Shown: positions 5,964 to 31,622, counted from the stretch's first letter. The stretch: 32,000 nucleotides of DNA from an uncultured Chloroflexia bacterium (GCA_963718915.1 CAVRAI010000003.1:420001-452000); one strand, 5' to 3'. Program-made: numbers and translations. Notes: generated by a model not told the origin, from the sequence alone.

Positions 5964-6806
5964 ATGAGCGTCGTCCTCTCCCATGTGCAGATCGAACCGT
6001 TGCTCCGCGCGCGCAACGCGGGCGAAGCGTCGGCCACCACGTCAGCCGACCTGGGCCGCACGGAGACGCTGGTCACGCTTGACGCTGAGGGCATCCTGTA
6101 TCCTGTAGGCGAGCGCTTGCGCTGGGATGATGCCGCGCGCATCGTGAAGAACGCCTCGGTCTGCTTCACCCTGAGCGGCGGTGAGATCGCGGACATTCGT
6201 ATCTTCTCGCCGACGACCAACTGGGTGCGCAGCCTCTATCCCACGCTCTCCGCGCCGACGATGCTGGTCTCGGGCGTGCCGATGCATCGGATCAAGGATA
6301 CCGATCCCTGGCGCGATACGCTGGCGAAGGTGAAGACGATTGCGCCGATGGCGGGCCGGGTGCTGGATACCGCGACTGGCCTGGGCTATACGGCGATTGT
6401 GGCGGCGGAAACGGCGGCCGAGGTCGTCACCATCGAGCTAGACCCCGCCGGGCTGGAGATCGCGCGCGCGAATCCGTGGTCGAGTGAGCTATTCGAGCGG
6501 GCCAACATCCGCCAACTCATCGGCGATGCCGCCGAGATCGTGCCAACGCTCGATGCGGCCTCGTTCGCGCGTATTGTGCATGACCCGCCGCAACTGAGCC
6601 TGGCGGGTCATCTCTACTCCGAGGAATTTTACCGTGAGCTGCGGCGCGTCCTGGCCAGTAGAGGCCGTCTCTTCCACTACATCGGCGACCCCAACAGCCC
6701 CTTCGGCAGTCGCACCACCAGCGGCGTGATGCGTCGGCTGCACAACGCCGGATTCGCGCGCGTCGTGCGTCGGCCCGAGGCATTCGGCCTCGTCGCCTAT
6801 GCGTGA
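5964..6806 (+). CDS. Class I SAM-dependent methyltransferase (COG2521-like 'archaeal-type' family)
   Basis: Motif I 'VLDTATGLGYTA', 'TIELDP', motif IV-like 'HDPPQLS' and 'GRLFHYIGDP' are present. The N-terminal roughly 110 aa are non-MTase. SD GCGGAG lies 7 nt before the ATG. The family call is from memory of the COG2521 pattern. Confidence 0.85.
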   Translation: MSVVLSHVQIEPLLRARNAGEASATTSADLGRTETLVTLDAEGILYPVGERLRWDDAARIVKNASVCFTLSGGEIADIRIFSPTTNWVRSLYPTLSAPTMLVSGVPMHRIKDTDPWRDTLAKVKTIAPMAGRVLDTATGLGYTAIVAAETAAEVVTIELDPAGLEIARANPWSSELFERANIRQLIGDAAEIVPTLDAASFARIVHDPPQLSLAGHLYSEEFYRELRRVLASRGRLFHYIGDPNSPFGSRTTSGVMRRLHNAGFARVVRRPEAFGLVAYA

Positions 6807-6975
6807 CGGGGCGAGGAAGGCGTAGCATTCATGCTACGGCGAATGGGGCGGGGAAATTAGCCGCAGCCTGACAGGCTGCGGTCGGCCCACCCCAGCACCC
6901 TGTTCGAGGTAATTTGTTACAATTCATCATGCCGCGAACCCGGATTATAACCCACGTTGTTGGCTCGATCACCGT
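6807..6975 (+). repeat. B-family structured repeat, copy B1 (left end truncated at the MTase stop codon)
   Basis: It contains hairpin CGTAGCA-TTCA-TGCTACG (6821-6838) followed by CGAAT, then 'CCCACCCCAGCAC..TGT', as in copy B2. The right part, 'TTCATCATGCCGCGAA...GCTCG.CACC', is shared with copy B3. It fills the whole gap between the two convergent genes. Confidence 0.8.
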
Positions 6976-7942: not shown

Positions 7943-8011
7943 GAGTCCGCGCAGGCGGACTTCGTGGCGGAACGCAGTGAGGCCGTTCAGGCGCGGTTTT
8001 AACCGCCAGCC
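7943..8011 (+). repeat. A-family REP-like repeat, copy A1
   Basis: Hairpin 1 is AGTCCGC-gcag-GCGGACT and hairpin 2 is GCGGT-ttta-ACCGC, followed by CAGCC. It has the same layout as A2-A4. It ends 4 nt before the stop codon (8016-8018) of the minus-strand VOC gene. Confidence 0.85.
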
Positions 8012-8015
8012 ACGT

Positions 8016-8853: not shown

Positions 8854-9015
8854 CGGTCATTCCTCCTGAACTGAGGCAAAGCGACGCTATTTTGGCGCGA
8901 AGGGCGCTCGCCCTTCTTTGATGAGACGACGGGCAATGCTTTGCCATTCCCGACCATCACGCCAAAACCGGTATCGCTTGCCCGAAGAGGATACGCCAAT
9001 GTATACCCTGGCGTC

Positions 9016-10119
9016 TCACCCGGCGAAGGCCTTGTCATCATCAGGGCTCGCGCGAAGAGATTCGTCGTCCTTGCGGCTTCTGGAACTGCCGAAGAGGGGG
9101 TCATCGGTCCAGAAATAGGGGCTGGTTGAATCGGATGCTGGTGGCGCAAAGGCCTCAGGAGGTGTCGGCTCCGGGCGCCCCAGAAGATCGACCAGCGCCC
9201 GTTTCAGGTGGGCGTCGTCGGTCTCCAGCGCTCGATCCAGACGTGCGAACCATCCAGCATGGCGGTGCAGGTCTTCCGTCGCGATCACGAATGGCCAGAA
9301 CCGGCCATGTTCGAGGACGTACTTTGTCCAGAGGATATCCTGCGGGCTGTGGATGGGAGGAACCCGCGGCGCGTAGAGGACGGGAACGCCAAGCCGCCTC
9401 ACCACCTGGCGCGCGCCCTTATCCACATGCCCGATGATCGCGTCAATATGCATCTGGGGATCGCGCGCCAGACACGACATGGTATAGAAGCCCTCGATGA
9501 GCGCGGCGAAGCTGAGCGGGTTTGTCAGGGCGCGATTGCTCAGCAGGCAGGTAAGTTCGTAGACACGATCGATTGGCAGCGCGGCCAGTGCGGGCAGGGA
9601 GGCTAACATATCAGGCCCGGATTGATCGTACTCTGTCGGGAAGAGCGGCCGGTCGCGGTCGCCGATGCGCGGCGTCCGGGTCGGCGCCGACCCATTGAGC
9701 GCGTGGTCGTGCGCGAGTGATGGCGCGGCTTGCAGGCAGAAGTACGCCAGCACGCGGTAATCGGACTGGACGCCGACGAGAATGTGAATCGTCCTGTCGG
9801 GGCATTGCGCAAGCATTGGATCGACCAGAAGCCGTTGTTTCCTGACTTCCGCGAGGTCATACCAGCCGCAGAGTGCGAACTGTTGTAGGCGAAATACGCC
9901 TAACGCGGCACGCTGGCGGGCAGTCAGCGACCCATGCCGTATCGCCATGCTCACGAGTCCCGTGCCAGATCGCACACGGTGGAGAAGCGGCGCCTCAGCC
10001 GGAGTCGTGAAAAGATCGGGGTAGCGCGCCTGACGCTGTTCGTGCGCATAGATATCCTGAAGCGCGGAACTTTCGATCCACGCTCCGGTGTCCAGGTCCT
10101 CAGAGACTCTCCGCTGCAT
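9016..10119 (-). CDS. Hypothetical protein with possible autoinducer-synthase/N-acyl-amino-acid-synthase-like (GNAT-related) core
   Basis: The ORF is long and has non-shadow composition. The motif order 'FRLQQFALCGW', 'VLAYFCLQA', 'PLFPTEY', 'YELTCLL', 'ARQVVRRLGVPV' parallels LuxI's RYQVF..W, WRLLPT, ELSRF and RFLKRIKVP, with similar spacing. This comparison is from memory and is not a search result. The SD is weak, so the start is uncertain. Confidence 0.6.
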   Translation of the reverse strand: MQRRVSEDLDTGAWIESSALQDIYAHEQRQARYPDLFTTPAEAPLLHRVRSGTGLVSMAIRHGSLTARQRAALGVFRLQQFALCGWYDLAEVRKQRLLVDPMLAQCPDRTIHILVGVQSDYRVLAYFCLQAAPSLAHDHALNGSAPTRTPRIGDRDRPLFPTEYDQSGPDMLASLPALAALPIDRVYELTCLLSNRALTNPLSFAALIEGFYTMSCLARDPQMHIDAIIGHVDKGARQVVRRLGVPVLYAPRVPPIHSPQDILWTKYVLEHGRFWPFVIATEDLHRHAGWFARLDRALETDDAHLKRALVDLLGRPEPTPPEAFAPPASDSTSPYFWTDDPLFGSSRSRKDDESLRASPDDDKAFAG

Positions 10120-10253
10120 CCTTTGCCCTGCTTTCTGTCCTCGCTATCCAGTCCCATTTCCTGATGCGCCTCGGCCCCTTCCTGAGTCGATGGAGCCACG
10201 CAATGCCTTGCTAGTGGTGCTGTGTGCTAGTAGTGCTTGTGCTGCTGTTGTTG

Positions 10254-11429
10254 CTAGTGGTGATCTGGTGGCGGGTGCAGTGCGGGCCAATCGCTCGGTG
10301 GCTCGACAAACTGGCTGCTATGGCTCCAGCCGCCCGGCTCCGACCCTGACGCCTGGCCGTACGGCAGCGAGCCTCCCTGTGGCGTGGAGCCACCGGATGC
10401 GGCAGAATGGAAGAATTGCACGAGCGGATCGACGAAGGTGCCGGATAGCTCCGGCCAGTGTGGCTGACGCCCGGCCTGTGCGTCGCGCAGCGCGGCCAGC
10501 AAGCGCTGTGTTTCCTCGAAGGCCCGCTGCATCTGGACGTCCGCGGCTGCCAGGCGCTGCATGCGCCCAATGAGGTTGTTGAGCGAGACGGAGACCTGCC
10601 AGAGGATGTTGTCACGCTGCAACGTCGGCGCACGCGCGCCGAAGTCACCGTTTGCCAGGCGCACATGTGTCTGTAGCAACTGCGTAACGCCGATCTCCAG
10701 CTGGCGTCGTTGCTCAGCCACCGCATGCTCCAGTTGAGCGATCTCCTCAGCACGGTCAGCGCGGCGAATTGCGCGCTCGGCGCCGACGACCCAGAGTATC
10801 GCGACGACGGTGATGATAATGTGAAGCCCAACTGGCCGACCGAGCAACGACAGCACGCCGATGGAGGGGTCGGGATAACTGGCGAGGTCAGTCACCAGGT
10901 CTGGAGCATGCGGCTGCAAGAAGAAGTCTCCGCAAATCAGCGCGATGTTGAGGGCGGAGACGATGACGGCGGAAATCGGCCCGAGGATCGAGGCGGCGAT
11001 GAGGACCGCCGCCAGCATCAGGTCGTAGGCTGGCAATGAATCGACGGTCATGCTGCCAGAAGAAAGCAGTGATCCCATGACGCCCACGTCGACAAGCGCC
11101 ACCACCAGCCAGCCGACAAATACGATGCGGCCAATCCGATTAAAAAAGATACCGGCGAGCAGGCCTACAAATACCACGCCGATTGCCGCCAGCGTGCCAG
11201 AATCACTCAGCCCGATGGGAATGAGCAGCGCGTCGACGATCAGGAAGGCAAGCAGGATCCAGGAGGCTAGCTGGCTGCGCCGAACTCGCTCGCGCTCCTC
11301 AATCGTGCGCTGGCCGCCGTAGGAGCCATAACTCGTCGCGCGTACCCACCAGCTGCCTCCCGCTGCTCGGGATGGGTGGCGGTTTTGCCACTGTGATGCA
11401 TCGTCGGTGGAATCAGGCCAATGATCCAT
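10254..11429 (-). CDS. Multi-pass membrane protein with HAMP-like and coiled-coil C-terminal region, no output domain
   Basis: About 6 hydrophobic helices span aa 55-225. They are followed by 'LLQTHVRLANGDFGARAPTLQRDNILWQVSVSLNNLIGRM', which fits a HAMP-like pattern (G-D-F..R.P...D.I..L..S.N.L). SD GGAGG precedes ATG 11429. Confidence 0.75.
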   Translation of the reverse strand: MDHWPDSTDDASQWQNRHPSRAAGGSWWVRATSYGSYGGQRTIEERERVRRSQLASWILLAFLIVDALLIPIGLSDSGTLAAIGVVFVGLLAGIFFNRIGRIVFVGWLVVALVDVGVMGSLLSSGSMTVDSLPAYDLMLAAVLIAASILGPISAVIVSALNIALICGDFFLQPHAPDLVTDLASYPDPSIGVLSLLGRPVGLHIIITVVAILWVVGAERAIRRADRAEEIAQLEHAVAEQRRQLEIGVTQLLQTHVRLANGDFGARAPTLQRDNILWQVSVSLNNLIGRMQRLAAADVQMQRAFEETQRLLAALRDAQAGRQPHWPELSGTFVDPLVQFFHSAASGGSTPQGGSLPYGQASGSEPGGWSHSSQFVEPPSDWPALHPPPDHH

Positions 11430-12007
11430 CTGCTACCTCCACACCAACCCTTGGGTTTCGCGAGGACACACGTCATATCCTCGTACACCTCAACTACGCT
11501 GACGAACGCGGGGTCACGTGCTATAACATGGATAACCATCAGCCTGCGTCAGTATTAGTACGTAGTGTGCGGCATCGAGTAACAATCTGTCAATGCAGTT
11601 TAGCATAGCATGATATGAGTGGTAGCGGGAGCGTATGGCACAATTGGCACGATTGGCGCGCCTGATAAACCTGACGATCACATGGCCTCAGAGCGGTATC
11701 GGGTAGGTGAACGGTCTGGACTATCCGCATTGTATCAGGCGTATCCAGAGAGGTCTATGCAGCGCTTCATAGAGCAGGTGAATCGCGCCGCCTCACCCCA
11801 TCGAACAGGCGCTCGTGATTCGCTCGCTTTGGGACTGTACGATAGTTGCCTTGCGCTGGCATTTGCTGTATCCTGCAAGGCGCTGATGCGCGTCCCAAAA
11901 TCGCGATCAATCGCAGGCGATACGGGCAATGGATGGGAGAAGCGCGATGTCGACCGGAATTGACGATATGACTGCTCGTCGGCCTCGTACCAATCCCGAC
12001 CGGTCGG

Positions 12008-13321
12008 TTGGGCGGATTCGCCGGGCCGCGATCGCAGGTGGTGCTGCTTCTCGCCTTCGGGCTTGATCTGCTGCTGTATAGCCTGATCGTGCCGTTTCTG
12101 CCACAGGAGGCAAAGCGTCTTGGGGCGTCTCCGCTCGTTATTGGAATCCTCTTTGCCATGTATGCCGTGGGTCTGTTTGCCGCCGCTCCCCTGGCCGCAT
12201 GGCTCACCGATCGCGCCGGGGCGCGCTGGACGCTCCTGCTGGGGCTGGTGATTCTGGGTGGCTCGACACTGCTCTTCGCCTACTCGTTCGCGCTTGGGCT
12301 GGGTTTGCCCGGGCTATTCGTCGCGCGCACCGCGCAGGGAGGCGCCAGCGCGTTGACCTGGACGGCGGGCCTGGCGATCCTCGTGCAGCTCTACCCCGCC
12401 GAGGCGCGCGCACGCATCTTCGCCCGTGCCTTCACCGCCGCTGGCCTTGGCGCGCTGATCGGCCCACCGCTGGGCGGCGTGCTCTACTCATTTGGCGGCT
12501 TCACGCTGCCTTTTCTGGTGGCCACGGGGCTCGTTGTGCTCGATGGCATTGGCCGCCTGCTGCTGCTCCCTGGCAATCGGCTGCTGCCCGCCACCCGCCC
12601 AGAGCCAGCGGCGAGGCGCACGCTGTTGCGCGATCCCGCCTTTCGGCTGGGATTGGCGGCCACGGTCGCGGGGGCGCTGGCCCTCTCCTCGCTTGAGCCA
12701 GTGACGCCGTTGCTTCTGGGCGGCTCATTTGGCATGCCCGCCTGGGGTATCGGCGTGGCATTTGCTGCCCTTGCCGTCTGCTTCGTGCTGATGCAGCCGC
12801 TCGTCAGCCGTTCAGAGCGGCGATTGGGGACCAAGGAGACCATCTGCGCCGGGCTACTGGTCGCGGCGCTCAGTTTTCTGGGGATCGCTTATGTCTCCAG
12901 CCATAGCAATGATCTTGGCGTCGTCGCGAGCATTCCCGCCATCTCATTGCTGGGGCCTGATATACAGTTACAGTCCATCAGGCTGGCGCTCGTTCTGGTC
13001 GTGGCGCTGCTGGCGCTCGTGGGATGCGCGCTCGCGTTCGTGCTGATTCCCGCGCCGGAACTGCTCACCGGCAGCGGGCAGCGGCTGGCGGGGCTAAGCG
13101 GCGTCGCGTATGGCGCGATCTTTGCCGCCTATAGCGCCGCCGATGCCCTTGGCATTCTCGCGGGTCCGGTGCTTACGGGCGGCGCTGTCGTGGCGCGGGG
13201 AGTTGCGCAGAGCTTTCTGCTGCTGGCGCTCGCGCCCGCCATCTGCGCGCTGCTCCTATCCCTATTTTTCTGGCGGGTACGACTACGCGGATCCGCACGT
13301 GAGAAAGCCAGCGAATCGTAA
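12008..13321 (+). CDS. MFS transporter
   Basis: There are 12-14 hydrophobic segments and a motif-A-like 'WLTDRAGARWTLLLG'. The frame opens at 11972. The start is TTG 12008 or GTG 12035/12038. Confidence 0.85.
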   Translation: MGGFAGPRSQVVLLLAFGLDLLLYSLIVPFLPQEAKRLGASPLVIGILFAMYAVGLFAAAPLAAWLTDRAGARWTLLLGLVILGGSTLLFAYSFALGLGLPGLFVARTAQGGASALTWTAGLAILVQLYPAEARARIFARAFTAAGLGALIGPPLGGVLYSFGGFTLPFLVATGLVVLDGIGRLLLLPGNRLLPATRPEPAARRTLLRDPAFRLGLAATVAGALALSSLEPVTPLLLGGSFGMPAWGIGVAFAALAVCFVLMQPLVSRSERRLGTKETICAGLLVAALSFLGIAYVSSHSNDLGVVASIPAISLLGPDIQLQSIRLALVLVVALLALVGCALAFVLIPAPELLTGSGQRLAGLSGVAYGAIFAAYSAADALGILAGPVLTGGAVVARGVAQSFLLLALAPAICALLLSLFFWRVRLRGSAREKASES

Positions 13322-13412
13322 CGGTCGCCCGCCTTGAAATGCCCCGAGAGGCTCCGACTCTCTATATGGTTGCCGCGTTACTCATCGGCGTCCCTGGTGC
13401 GATAACTTCTGC

Positions 13413-13461
13413 TAGCCCGCGCAGGTGGGCTTCGCGGCGGAACGCCCATAGGCGCGGCTTA
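13413..13461 (+). repeat. A-family REP-like repeat, copy A2 (left part; continues at 13627-13640 after the MITE)
   Basis: TAGCCCGCGCAGGTGGGC is hairpin 1, with a G-U wobble. It continues ...TAGGCGCGGCTTA, is interrupted, and resumes as TTAGCCGCCAGCG at 13627. Confidence 0.85.
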
Positions 13462-13626
13462 TGTCGTTTTAGAAAATAGGAGGGACACGGGCATTCCGGT
13501 GGGGTGAGCAGGCCGTAGCGTTCACGCTACGGCGAATTTCCCGCTCTCTCTGGCCCATTCGCTGGCAGGCTCCGGCTCGCTCTCGCCCACCCCAGCACGC
13601 TGTACGGGGTTATTTCTAAAACGACA
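13462..13626 (+). mobile_element. B-family MITE, copy B2: 165 bp with terminal inverted repeats, flanked by a TTA target-site duplication
   Basis: The left TIR is TGTCGTTTTAGAAAATA (13462-13478). The right TIR is TATTTCTAAAACGACA (13611-13626). TTA occurs at 13459-61 and again at 13627-29. The internal hairpin CCGTAGCG-TTCA-CGCTACGG lies at 13513-13532. It contains no ORF. Confidence 0.85.
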
Positions 13627-13664
13627 TTAGCCGCCAGCGCCTTATTACCCGCAATGAATGAATA

Positions 13665-14414
13665 CTAGCGATAGCCGCCGTAGATCGCGTGCCCCGCGAG
13701 CATCCAGAAGCAGTCCGCGACCGAGAAGCCCGCCGCGCGCAGCCATTGCATCTGGTCGGCCAGTGGCGAGGGATGGTCTATCGGGTCTTCCTCGGTCAGC
13801 TCGTAATAGTTCCACTCGGCGTCGCGGAACTGCTGATACAGGCTGAGGTCGCCCGCAAGCACCTGACTTTGTATCTGTGCCGCGGTATTCCACTGGTCGG
13901 CGAAGAGCAGCCGCACGCGATCACTGGCGGGCGCGACCAGGTCGGCCAGCAAGAGTGCGCCCCCCGGCTCCAGTCGTCCCGCCACATCGGCGAACAGTTG
14001 ACGCTTGCCTTCGTGTGTCAGGTGGTGGACCACCAGCGACGAGAGCACGCAGCGTAGCGGCGAGGGCAGCGCCTCACGCCAGGCAGTATCGGCTAGCTCG
14101 AACGGGCCAATCGTCACGCGGTCGCCGTAGGGGGCCAGTTTCTCGCGCAGTTCCGCTCGCATTGTCTCCGAGCCATCCAGCGCGTGATAGTGACAGTTGG
14201 GATAGGCGTCCAGCACAGCGCGCGCCAGTAGCCCACCGCCCGCGCCAAGCTCGACGGCGGTAAAGGTTTCGTCGGCCTCGGCGGGGATCAGCGCGCAGAG
14301 CGTCGCAATCTGCTGCTCGCGCATCGGCACGGCCACATCGTCGAGGGTCAGAAAAAGGGCGGAATTGTCCTCCGACCAGTGTTGGGGCGCACTATCGTCT
14401 GCCATGCGGGACAT
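13665..14414 (-). CDS. Class I SAM-dependent methyltransferase
   Basis: Motif I is 'AVELGAGGGLLA', with 'HALDGSETM' and 'LLLADLV' also present. The alternative start ATG 14405 has better SD spacing (AAAGGA, 8 nt). Confidence 0.9.
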   Translation of the reverse strand: MSRMADDSAPQHWSEDNSALFLTLDDVAVPMREQQIATLCALIPAEADETFTAVELGAGGGLLARAVLDAYPNCHYHALDGSETMRAELREKLAPYGDRVTIGPFELADTAWREALPSPLRCVLSSLVVHHLTHEGKRQLFADVAGRLEPGGALLLADLVAPASDRVRLLFADQWNTAAQIQSQVLAGDLSLYQQFRDAEWNYYELTEEDPIDHPSPLADQMQWLRAAGFSVADCFWMLAGHAIYGGYR

Positions 14415-20071: not shown

Positions 20072-20167
20072 ATGAACGAACAACTTGAACTGGTATTGCC
20101 CTCGCTTGAACTAGAGGTGGCGTACCAGGCGTGCGAAGCCGACTTCCAGCGGGCGGATTCTCTGTAG
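20072..20167 (+). pseudogene. 31-codon stub resembling a GNAT N-terminus, ended by the TAG of repeat A3
   Basis: SD GAGGG lies 5 nt before ATG 20072. 'MNEQLELVLPSLELEVAYQACEADFQRA' resembles the N-termini of a GNAT subfamily (L.LV.PS.E....Y). The stop codon 20165-67 is the first 3 nt of the A-family repeat. Confidence 0.35.
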
Positions 20168-20228
20168 CCCGCGCAGGCGGGCTTTGCGGTTGCGCAGCAA
20201 CCCTTAGGCGCGGCTTCAGCCGCCAGCC
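20165..20228 (+). repeat. A-family REP-like repeat, copy A3
   Basis: The sequence is TAG-GCCCGC-gcag-GCGGGC-TTTGCGG...TAGGC-GCGGC-ttca-GCCGC-CAGCC. Confidence 0.9.
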
Positions 20229-20296
20229 ACCGTCCTCGTCGCCCGCTACAGGATACACATCGATGCCGATAGCGACGACCAGAGAGAGGGAGCGAT

Positions 20297-21873: not shown

Positions 21874-21933
21874 TAGCCCGCGCAGGCGGGCTTTGCGGCC
21901 AACGGCCCCTAGGCGCGACTTTAGTCGCCAGCC
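21874..21933 (+). repeat. A-family REP-like repeat, copy A4
   Basis: The sequence is TAG-GCCCGC-gcag-GCGGGC-TTTGCGG...TAGGC-GCGAC-ttta-GTCGC-CAGCC. It ends 2 nt before the sufU stop codon (21936-38). Confidence 0.9.
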
Positions 21934-21935
21934 CG

Positions 21936-22340: not shown

Positions 22341-22590
22341 ACTTTAAGTCTCCCAAACTGCCCAGGTGCGGCGGCTGGCAACGCTGGTTCTGGGCCACCG
22401 CAAGCCGTAGCCTGAAGGGCACGGCTAATCCCGTGATAAGTATATCCGCTCGCCATCAACACGGCTCTCGAATGAACAGGATTAGCCGCATAGCTCTCAG
22501 CCCGCGGCGCGCGCCCCAGCTCGCTGTTGGAGGTCATTCTTAAAGTTCATCATGCCGCGAAGTTCGATTCACCGCAATGCTCGCCACCAG
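22341..22590 (+). repeat. B-family repeat, copy B3 (long variant) filling the sufS-sufU gap
   Basis: The right end GGAGGTCATTCTTAAAGTTCA matches the termini of B2 and B5. The degenerate hairpin is CCGTAGCC-tgaag-GGCACGG. An extra inverted repeat is GGCTAATCC (22431-39) / GGATTAGCC (22479-87). The tail TTCATCATGCCGCGAA... is shared with B1. The left boundary, which abuts the sufU ATG, is approximate. Confidence 0.7.
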
Positions 22591-23862: not shown

Positions 23863-23925
23863 ATTCGCACATCCCTTCTTCCGCGAGGACGCCAGTCACG
23901 CAACTCGGCTCGTATGAAATTGGTC

Positions 23926-24056
23926 TGGGACGTTGGATTTGGGGAGATGGTCCGCAGCATTCATGCTGCGGCGAATGAAGAATCGACCAATTCGTCGGGG
24001 TCTTCAGGCTCCGGCATGCTTCCCGAAAGGCAACGTCCTCAAAATCCAATGTCATA
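23926..24056 (+). repeat. B-family MITE-like repeat, copy B4 (short variant) in the sufC-sufS gap
   Basis: The inverted ends are GACGTTGGATTTGGGGA (left) and TCCTCAAAATCCAATGTC (right). The hairpin CCGCAGCA-TTCA-TGCTGCGG (23952-23971) is followed by CGAAT. The 'CAGGCTCCGGC' block is shared with B2. No clear TSD is visible. Confidence 0.75.
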
Positions 24057-24148
24057 CCCCTGATAAGCCCAATGCCCTCTTGAGCGACGAGAGGGCCGGA
24101 AGGTTCACCCCCGGCCCCGCGCGCAGTCTCTGACGGTTGGCGCAGTGG

Positions 24149-31371: not shown

Positions 31372-31429
31372 AGTTGGTTCTCCTGGCCGAGTCGGCGTCT
31401 GGACTGTAGACTACGACGCGCGCGGCTGA

Positions 31430-31596
31430 TGAACTTTTAGAAATAACCCCGTACAGCGTCCTATGGCGGGCGTCCAGGAAGCCCAAAGGCCCCGGCGAAT
31501 GGGCCAGAGCAGCCGGGAAATTCGCCGTAGCGTTCACGCTACGGTCTGCCTCGCCCACCACGACGTGCGGTGTTCGGCGTACATAGTAAATCGACA
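31430..31596 (-). mobile_element. B-family MITE, copy B5 (inverted relative to B2), flanked by TGA on both sides
   Basis: The reverse complement aligns with B2 over its whole length: ...GGCGAGGCAGA-CCGTAGCG-TGAA-CGCTACGG-CGAATTTCCC...GCTGTACGGGGTTATTTCTAAAAGTTCA. TGA occurs at 31427-29 and 31597-99. The hairpin lies at 31525-31544. Confidence 0.8.
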
Positions 31597-31622
31597 TGAT
31601 GCTACGGCCAGCTCCCCCTGCT

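Follow-up and report, generated by a model that had tools for sequence, protein, structure and literature searches.

Insertion of mobile elements into REP sequences is documented for members of the IS3, IS110, IS4, IS256 and IS5 families, and for IS1397 and ISKpn1 the targeting has been attributed to the transposase itself (PMC1525189). REP superfamilies with GTAG- or CTAG-like tags have been described (PMC3733652), bacterial MITEs have been reviewed (PMC3184786), and most members of the IS110 family are known to lack inverted repeats (PMC1525189). Small non-autonomous transposons and REP-targeted insertion are thus ordinary, known bacterial kinds, and what is new here is the lineage; in the literature searched, no REP-like or MITE-like repeats were described from this lineage of Chloroflexota. 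Insertion into the loop of a REP hairpin is known from a few full-length IS in Proteobacteria, and the locus described here would add to these a non-autonomous element from a phylum far removed.

We analysed a single stretch of 32,000 nucleotides from an uncultured Chloroflexia bacterium (GCA_963718915.1, CAVRAI010000003.1:420001-452000), hereafter the window, in which all positions are counted from the first letter. At one intergenic site a 165-bp insert, B, lies inside a REP-like repeat, A. On balance we consider it probable that B is a non-autonomous, MITE-type relic of a cut-and-paste or copy-and-paste DNA transposon, which inserted in the loop of hairpin 2 of an A repeat and duplicated the triplet TTA.

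Genomic setting and structure of the insert

The genes of the 32-kb window are ordinary chromosomal ones, including the suf operon, queC, a mutS-like gene and transporters, and three of the encoded proteins have their best homologues in MAGs of Ktedonobacterales (Chloroflexota). No transposase gene, Y1_Tnp included, was found in the window. The site of B lies between the 3' ends of convergent genes, an MFS transporter (12008-13321, + strand) and a SAM-methyltransferase (13665-14414, - strand), and comprises the following features.

13462-13626, + strand: B element, a probable 165-bp non-coding MITE-like transposon relic, recognised by its inverted ends, family alignment, fold and ORF scan
13462-13475, + strand: left terminal inverted repeat TGTCGTTTTAGAAA, 14 nt and perfect, with GGACAC following at nt 22-27
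13613-13626, - strand: right terminal inverted repeat, which reads TTTCTAAAACGACA on the + strand
13459-13461, unstranded: left copy of a putative 3-bp target-site duplication, TTA
13627-13629, unstranded: right-hand counterpart of this putative duplication, TTA
13512-13533, + strand: internal REP-like hairpin of B, GCCGTAGCG-TTCA-CGCTACGGC, followed by GAAT

The first-pass annotation had described a 165-bp insert with perfect 14-nt ends, TTA on both sides and no ORF, and each of these particulars was borne out. The junctions, marked here by slashes, read ...AGGCGCGGC-TTA/TGTCGTTTTAGAAAATAG...TTATTTCTAAAACGACA/TTA-GCCGCCAGCG, and a scan of the 32 kb with the 14-mer TGTCGTTTTAGAAA returned exactly two occurrences, at 13462-13475 (+) and 13613-13626 (-). 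When up to two mismatches are allowed, 0.04 chance matches are expected, and two or more were seen in none of 100 shuffles; the perfect 14-nt inverted ends of B are far above chance. A repeat finder extended the inverted repeat to 22 nt (13454-13475 and 13613-13634), taking in the flanking GCGGC and GCCGC, with a sole mismatch at the middle base of the TTA triplets, which shows that the triplets are direct and not inverted repeats. The longest ORF within B encodes 29 aa and no sigma-70-like promoter match lies within it; at 165 bp and lacking a transposase ORF, B falls inside the size range of MITEs (less than about 500 bp).

B is a foldback, the homology between its left and right halves appearing once the right one is reverse-complemented. 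In each half there are a terminal repeat, a G[GA]ACA[CG] block, the motif GGGGTGRGC and a GAAT-tagged REP-like hairpin.

The interrupted A repeat

B is flanked by the two parts of a repeat that is found intact three times elsewhere in the window.

13413-13461, + strand: left part of the interrupted A repeat, with hairpin 1 (GCCCGC-GCAG-GTGGGC), a spacer, the hairpin-2 arm GCGGC and the loop or duplication TTA; aligns with A1, A3 and A4
13630-13640, + strand: right part of the interrupted A repeat, with the hairpin-2 arm GCCGC and the tail CAGCG; matches the A consensus GCCGCCAGC
7943-8013, + strand: A1, an intact A repeat with hairpin 2 GCGGT-TTTA-ACCGC
20165-20230, + strand: A3, an intact A repeat with hairpin 2 GCGGC-TTCA-GCCGC
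21874-21935, + strand: A4, an intact A repeat with hairpin 2 GCGAC-TTTA-GTCGC

With the interrupted copy there are four A repeats in the window, and further copies occur in related genomes. Deletion of 13462-13629 gives GCGGC-TTA-GCCGCCAGCG, and the copy restored in this way aligns over its full length, across the junction, with A1, A3, A4 and the A copies of related genomes, the A consensus being matched on both sides of B (49 nt on the left, GCCGCCAGC on the right). The alignments accordingly give robust grounds for placing B within the hairpin-2 loop of an A repeat, which it splits. Since the two parts match intact copies, A must have been in place before B, which upholds the nested order originally proposed. 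The proposal that the deletion restores hairpin 2 holds as far as these alignments go, with a discrepancy in the length of the loop: intact A hairpin-2 loops are 4 nt long (TTCA or TTTA) in all nine independent copies compared, whereas the restored loop has 3 nt, and TTA appears in none of the nine.

Related genomes were compared at this site. In a 90%-identical relative (L137), hairpin 1 of A occupies the matching place beyond the 3' end of the MFS gene, and the contig ends inside A; both A and B are missing from the MFS-gene site of an 80% relative (L138). The presence of A at the B locus in the one and its absence from the other are in line with A predating B. Most relatives, for which homologues of both flanking genes were fetched, lack the whole MFS gene block. 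In a JGI contig with the same gene order, only 36 nt separate the two genes according to its gene table, so that it probably carries neither A nor B.

Rfam gave a sub-threshold CRISPR-DR28 hit on hairpin 1 of A; a CRISPR reading of such hits was excluded, the A hairpins being isolated and not arranged in an array. More generally, A and B repeats give false CRISPR-repeat hits, and they account for much of the variation in spacer length between closely related genomes. They may also break metagenome assemblies, given that the contig of the relative L137 ends inside an A repeat.

Other members of the B family

In search of relatives of B, a profile derived from four half-units, those of B and those of its homologue L124 (described below), was run over the window and over all of the DNA fetched from related genomes. 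Four further members were located in the window.

31430-31596, - strand: B2, a second complete member, 167 bp, inverted relative to B (its halves score nhmmer E values of 2.4e-12 and 1.4e-08)
6808-6926, + strand: left-truncated copy, its left end missing, directly after a stop codon
22509-22549, + strand: right-end fragment in the sufS-nifU spacer, followed by TCA (22550-22552) and the arm TGCCGCGAA
23912-24057, + strand: diverged relative in the sufC-sufS spacer

The family in the window therefore comprises two complete, two truncated and one diverged copy, at 48-72% identity. B2 is collinear with B over its whole length, opening TG to closing CA, at 72% identity, and has TGA on either side (31427-31429 and 31597-31599), a 3-bp direct repeat that differs from the TTA of B. 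This second complete copy, with the same TG...CA termini and another direct repeat, supports the identification of B as a MITE. A TA duplication of the IS630/mariner type fits neither B nor B2, and duplications of 4 bp or 2 bp do not fit B. The terminal repeats of B2 are degenerate (9 of 18 positions match). The two elements agree at every position of a 25-nt subterminal block, TTTTAGAAATAACCCCGTACAGCGT (the right-end side of B corresponding to the left end of B2), despite 72% identity overall, which points either to constrained ends or to gene conversion. The arms that flank B2 come from two distinct types of hairpin, not from a single one; recombination between two copies is a possible source of these mismatched arms.

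A full homologue of 180 bp with the same TG...CA start and end, L124, was found in the MAG SMAG_U1423 (DASUHD01), a second Ktedonobacterales bin, through a scan of genomes for the internal-hairpin pattern that gave three hits, of which only this one was relevant. Its terminal repeats match at 12 of 18 positions, and its arms are complementary at 70% over 87 nt. The diverged relative at 23912-24057 (48-55% identity) shares the internal hairpin doublet and terminates in 12-nt inverted repeats of its own, GTATGAAATTGG and CCAATGTCATAC; it is absent in two related genomes (L121 and L122). Of the 3-bp duplications expected at other copies, one is seen at B2, which has TGA on both sides, but L124 is flanked by TGA and TCG, with no clean duplication, and the 23912 copy by GTA and TAC, which is not a direct repeat. 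Common TG...CA boundaries set in different flanks are seen in B, B2 and L124; fragments of the family lie at 6808 and 22509.

Whereas the 32-kb window holds five members, the profile search found none in about 141 kb of DNA from closer Ktedonobacterales relatives, in which the orthologous spacers are shorter or filled by other repeats. From this absence the B family seems to be specific to its lineage and to have moved within the time that parts these genomes. Wider searches were likewise negative. A scan for two terminal repeats separated by a gap gave no hits, and hence no copy with perfect terminal repeats, in 185,579 species-representative genomes, among which the source genome is not included. 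Among the matches listed, a 14-mer scan of viral contigs gave chance hits only, and two family patterns had no match in viral contigs; the left-end pattern had two hits in JGI metagenomes, both by chance in AT-rich DNA; and a plasmid BLAST found no match.

Two accounts do not treat B as a DDE transposon. In one, the 165 bp would serve as a structured non-coding RNA or as a regulatory element kept for its fold, the inverted ends forming the closing stem. B does fold as one long hairpin (-46.8 kcal/mol with DNA parameters, z = -3.8), and its internal hairpin (13512-13533), the best-conserved core of the family, shows paired changes in the stem between copies. However, the full-length paralogue B2 folds no better than shuffled sequences (z = 0.1), Rfam has no match inside B at gathering thresholds or at E values up to 10, and the copies lie in unrelated spacers and are absent from the orthologous spacers of relatives. 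As copies are found truncated and in either orientation, the element as a whole is unlikely to act as an RNA, and we find this account scarcely credible.

The other account regards B as a composite like a REPIN or BIME, spread by a REP-associated Y1/HUH transposase or built by recombination among hairpins. Its foldback form would suit such an origin, with homologous inverted halves that each bear a GC-rich hairpin and a GAAT/ATTC tag, as would the long arms of L124 and the occurrence of the inner hairpin doublet without the outer ends. The genome is also rich in REP-like hairpins, and hairpin 1 of A carries a GTAG or CTAG tag, as in REP superfamilies (PMC3733652). Yet three full copies have sharp TG...CA boundaries, two of them with 3-bp direct repeats, and REPINs and IS200/IS605 elements have neither terminal inverted repeats nor duplications (PMC3333891). 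The 32-kb window contains no Y1 transposase gene, and the units of B, at about 80 nt, are far longer than REPs. A composite of this kind is improbable in our judgement, and the reading of B as a MITE-type relic is retained in what follows.

Insertion junctions and hairpin loops

The 6808 copy ends on the right with ...AATTCA, beyond which stand TCA (6927-6929) and, at 6930-6935, the hairpin arm TGCCGC, so that its junction reads ...CA/TCA/TGCCGCGAAC, and the 22509 fragment adjoins the same arm. At the orthologous site of the 6808 copy, GCA_025928125.1 (L128) has an uninterrupted hairpin, GCGGCA-TTCA-TGCCGC-GAAC, with the same downstream flank. Judged by this alignment, the L128 hairpin is an empty site for the right junction of the 6808 copy, and it lends support to hairpin loops as preferred targets. 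The sequences on either side of L124 are CGTAGCC and GGTTACG, which would pair as a 7-bp stem with one G-T. Loops of perfect hairpins (stem of at least 5 bp, loop of 3-4 nt) make up 1.6% of intergenic junction positions, and at least two of five insertions lie in such loops (binomial P about 0.003). What had been offered as a hint of loop preference has gained weight from the 6808 junction, the intact L128 hairpin and the scarcity of such loops. Inverted ends, flanking triplets, a split A repeat, family copies and one empty site are all directly observed.

Read inward, the ends all follow one pattern: a GC-rich arm, a triplet NNA and then the element from its TG onward. At 10 of 10 ends, including those of L124 and of 23912-24057, the base adjoining the terminus is the same, an A on the left side and a T on the right, and this invariant A/T could belong to the element. 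The flanking triplets are TTA in B, TGA in B2, TCA in the 6808 and 22509 copies and TGA on the left side of L124, all of which conform to T-N-A. Because most target loops are TTCA or TGAA, a TCA or TGA match is in each case less informative than 1/64 would imply, and because the loops hit are TTCA, TTTA or TGAA, the T..A pattern is possibly imposed by the target. Several different hairpin types have been hit, which suggests that structure, or the loop, is recognised and not one REP sequence. Insertion beside a fixed tetranucleotide, as in IS200/IS605 elements, was excluded, the flanks not being constant.

These junctions admit a different placing of the boundaries, in which the mobile unit is the 167 bp from 13461 to 13627, begins ATG and ends CAT, has 15-nt perfect ends, and enters the centre of 4-nt loops with no duplication. 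Removal of 13461-13627 leaves GCGGC-TTTA-GCCGC, a loop known from intact A copies as TTA never is; the sequence A/TG...CA/T is found at 10 of 10 ends, including L124 and 23912-24057, which lack direct repeats; the 6808 and 22509 junctions (...TTCAT/CA-TGCCGC) and the L128 site (TT/CA) fit with no ad hoc change; and removal of the unit from L124 leaves CGTAGCC-TGCG-GGTTACG. Against this, perfect 3-bp direct repeats flank B as well as B2, a strict preference for TNA targets equally explains the constant A/T, and elements that have terminal inverted repeats and lack a target duplication are essentially unprecedented. None of the IS families without duplications (IS110, IS200/IS605, IS91, IS607) is known to have such terminal repeats. 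We therefore think the 167-bp unit unlikely, though worth keeping in view; were it true, the mechanism would be either not standard DDE transposition or structure-specific.

A related and somewhat less likely proposition is that the transposase reads hairpin or cruciform structure rather than sequence, and inserts an element with ATG...CAT termini at the dyad centre of 4-nt loops in unrelated hairpins, maybe without duplication. The hairpins concerned would be hairpin 2 of A, GCGGCA-TTCA-TGCCGC and CGTAGCC/GGTTACG. This would constitute a mode of integration not described for elements with terminal inverted repeats.

Proposed mechanism and possible parent family

On the preferred reading, that of a MITE-type relic with a TTA duplication, a transposase encoded elsewhere would recognise the TG...CA inverted ends of B, and a 3-bp staggered cut would integrate B into the loop-encoding DNA of hairpin 2 in a pre-existing A repeat, duplicating TTA. 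The outcome would be a lineage-specific family of 165-180-bp foldback elements whose insertions favour the loops of GC-rich REP-like hairpins, loops that may offer the family safe sites free of genes. Mobilisation in trans, a DDE mechanism and the parent family are what we infer from the features of B and its relatives, and the same would apply to any present-day activity.

The best lead for the parent is an IS3-family-like DDE element of the REP-targeting kind to which IS1397, ISKpn1 and ISPsy8 belong, an assignment that we make tentatively and as one of resemblance, not membership. TG opens all eight of the B-family ends listed, and G[GA]ACA[CG] is found at nt 22-27 in every B-family end. 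In E. coli IS3, GGACAC lies at nt 21-26 of IRL and of IRR alike, and ISPsy8 has it there too, a likeness that is offset by 1 nt, was noticed post hoc and draws on three reference ends only. The putative 3-bp duplication in B and B2 fits the IS3-family range of 3-5 bp. No autonomous parent with B-type ends was found in the window or in the pattern scans, and for the transposases encountered in relatives (IS630-like in L121, DDE_5 in L131) no B-like ends were found in the adjoining DNA examined.

A link to the IS5 family or its PIF/Harbinger relatives had been suggested by the first-pass annotation, and B might accordingly be a MITE mobilised by an IS5-family transposase of the IS1031-group type, with 3-bp TNA duplications, or by a PIF/Harbinger-like relative. 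One part of the suggestion stands, in that T-N-A recurs (TTA, TGA, TCA) across B, B2, the 6808 and 22509 copies and the left side of L124. Insertion sites of three nucleotides are a feature of the IS1031 group (PMC2516522), and the IS5-family element ISNm1106 shows REP association (PMC1525189). The other part fares less well: the termini of B are TG...CA with an IS3-like subterminal GGACAC block, of the form G[GA]ACA[CG] in the family, the triplets TGA and TCA do not fit the Harbinger TWA, and the T..A pattern may mirror the TTCA, TTTA and TGAA loops that were hit. The ends known for IS5-family elements begin with GG or GA, which would count against an IS5 parent for B, and we rate such a parent as quite unlikely.

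Discussion

Two waves of small repeats reached this locus in Ktedonobacterales one after the other, first A and then B. Nothing in this nested arrangement overturns current understanding, and as several hairpin types have been hit, the family is a possible system in which to ask whether a transposase reads structure or sequence.

The locus may be set beside five kinds of described element. IS110-family members have one fixed short crossover core, whereas the triplet flanking B-family elements varies (TTA, TGA, TCA), and B, unlike most of that family, has 14-nt terminal repeats. What the two have in common is specific insertion into REP sequences, as seen in IS621, ISPpu9 and ISPa11 (PMC1525189, PMC12288879). 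With REPINs and BIMEs, which are tied to RAYT (Y1) enzymes, B shares two inverted, hairpin-bearing units with a spacer, an intergenic position and a host genome rich in REP-like hairpins. REPIN units are about 25 nt long, while those of B are about 80 nt, and B differs further in its outer TG...CA inverted ends and 3-bp direct repeats. The putative 3-bp T-N-A duplication would be shared with the IS1031 group of the IS5 family and with PIF/Harbinger elements; B departs from both in its TG...CA termini with an IS3-like subterminal block, and in its TGA and TCA triplets, the Harbinger target duplication being TWA.

As a type, B resembles bacterial MITEs such as Correia/NEMIS, ERIC and MITEAba12 in being shorter than 200 bp, in having terminal inverted repeats, direct repeats and a long stem-loop, and in being intergenic and devoid of a transposase. 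It differs from bacterial MITEs in general in that few copies are seen, at 48-72% identity and not as a large homogeneous population, and in that no matching IS is known. In its choice of site it is most like the REP-targeting IS of the IS3 family, which insert inside REP palindromes: IS1397 splits the E. coli REP at its centre, and ISPsy8 of Pseudomonas syringae has 3-bp direct repeats, with every copy splitting a REP. IS3 and ISPsy8 also have a TG terminus and a GGACAC block about 21 nt in. Unlike IS1397 and ISKpn1 of the Enterobacteriaceae and ISPsy8, B is 165 bp long without a transposase, and its motif is offset by 1 nt. The host of B belongs to the Chloroflexota, whereas those of IS1397, ISKpn1 and ISPsy8 are Proteobacteria, and the B family hits several types of hairpin.

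Genomic context of the A and B repeats

The element designated B, a 165-bp MITE-like insertion within the second hairpin of an older, REP-like A repeat, lies together with that repeat at one edge of a block of approximately 4.8 kb (about 8854-13664) that separates a methyltransferase gene from a glyoxalase gene. Most relatives have only about 70-90 nt between these two genes, and the block is also present on one JGI contig. It contains the following genes:

9016-10119, unknown gene
10254-11429, unknown gene
12008-13321, MFS gene

In L137, the closest relative at the B locus, the contig end falls within an A repeat (2370-2402), which is consistent with A-type repeats breaking short-read metagenome assemblies.

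Structure and targets of B-family copies

B2, the second complete copy, lies in the opposite orientation to B, yet its internal hairpin (31525-31546; 13512-13533 in B) presents the loop TTCA on the plus strand. Read in the orientation of B, this loop is TGAA; hence, it is flipped relative to B while the palindromic stem is unaltered. B and the incomplete copy at 6808 both retain a second-tier stem, GGGGTGAGC / GCCCACCCC, and the sequences between its arms are not alike:

13501-13509 / 13585-13594, stem arms in B
6808-6816 / 6885-6894, stem arms in the 6808 copy

The target of the 6808 copy, and of another incomplete member at 22509, is a third type of hairpin repeat bearing a GGATTAGCC tag (for example, GGATTAGCC-GCGGCA-TTCA-TGCCGC-GAAC). 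This type occurs in the window (22397-22505) and in the related genome GCA_025928125.1 (approximately 6705-6830) as inverted doublets with approximately 47 nt between them, and looks REPIN-like.

Transposase genes are present in two relatives:

L121, 18441-21290, group II intron reverse transcriptase adjoining an IS630-like (DDE_3) transposase
L131, 9483-10697, DDE_5 transposase

The DDE_5 gene is missing from L130, which is otherwise collinear with L131. Within the fetched DNA of L121 and L131, B-like ends were not found at the IS630-like/intron or DDE_5 genes.

A conserved block in the sufC-sufS spacer

A block of approximately 45 nt, ACGCGCGGGGCCGGGGGTGAACCTTCCGGCCCTGTCGTCGCTCA, is conserved across three genomes within an otherwise variable sufC-sufS spacer, and is possibly a regulatory hairpin such as a terminator or an attenuator:

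about 24075-24125, minus strand, window
about 9760-9810, L122
about 9790-9840, L121

Hairpin 1 of the A repeats

Rfam matches to CRISPR-DR28 coincide with hairpin 1 of the A family:

20165-20188, minus strand, match
21874-21897, minus strand, match
13413-13436, minus strand, match below threshold

We rejected a CRISPR repeat as the explanation, because these hairpins are single copies spaced at least 1.7 kb apart and form no array; the matches are therefore false calls. The tag 5' of hairpin 1 is GTAG in A3 (20169-20186) and CTAG in A2, the copy interrupted by B, and A4. In carrying GTAG or CTAG ahead of this hairpin, the A repeats resemble the GTAG-tagged REP superfamily described previously (PMC3733652).
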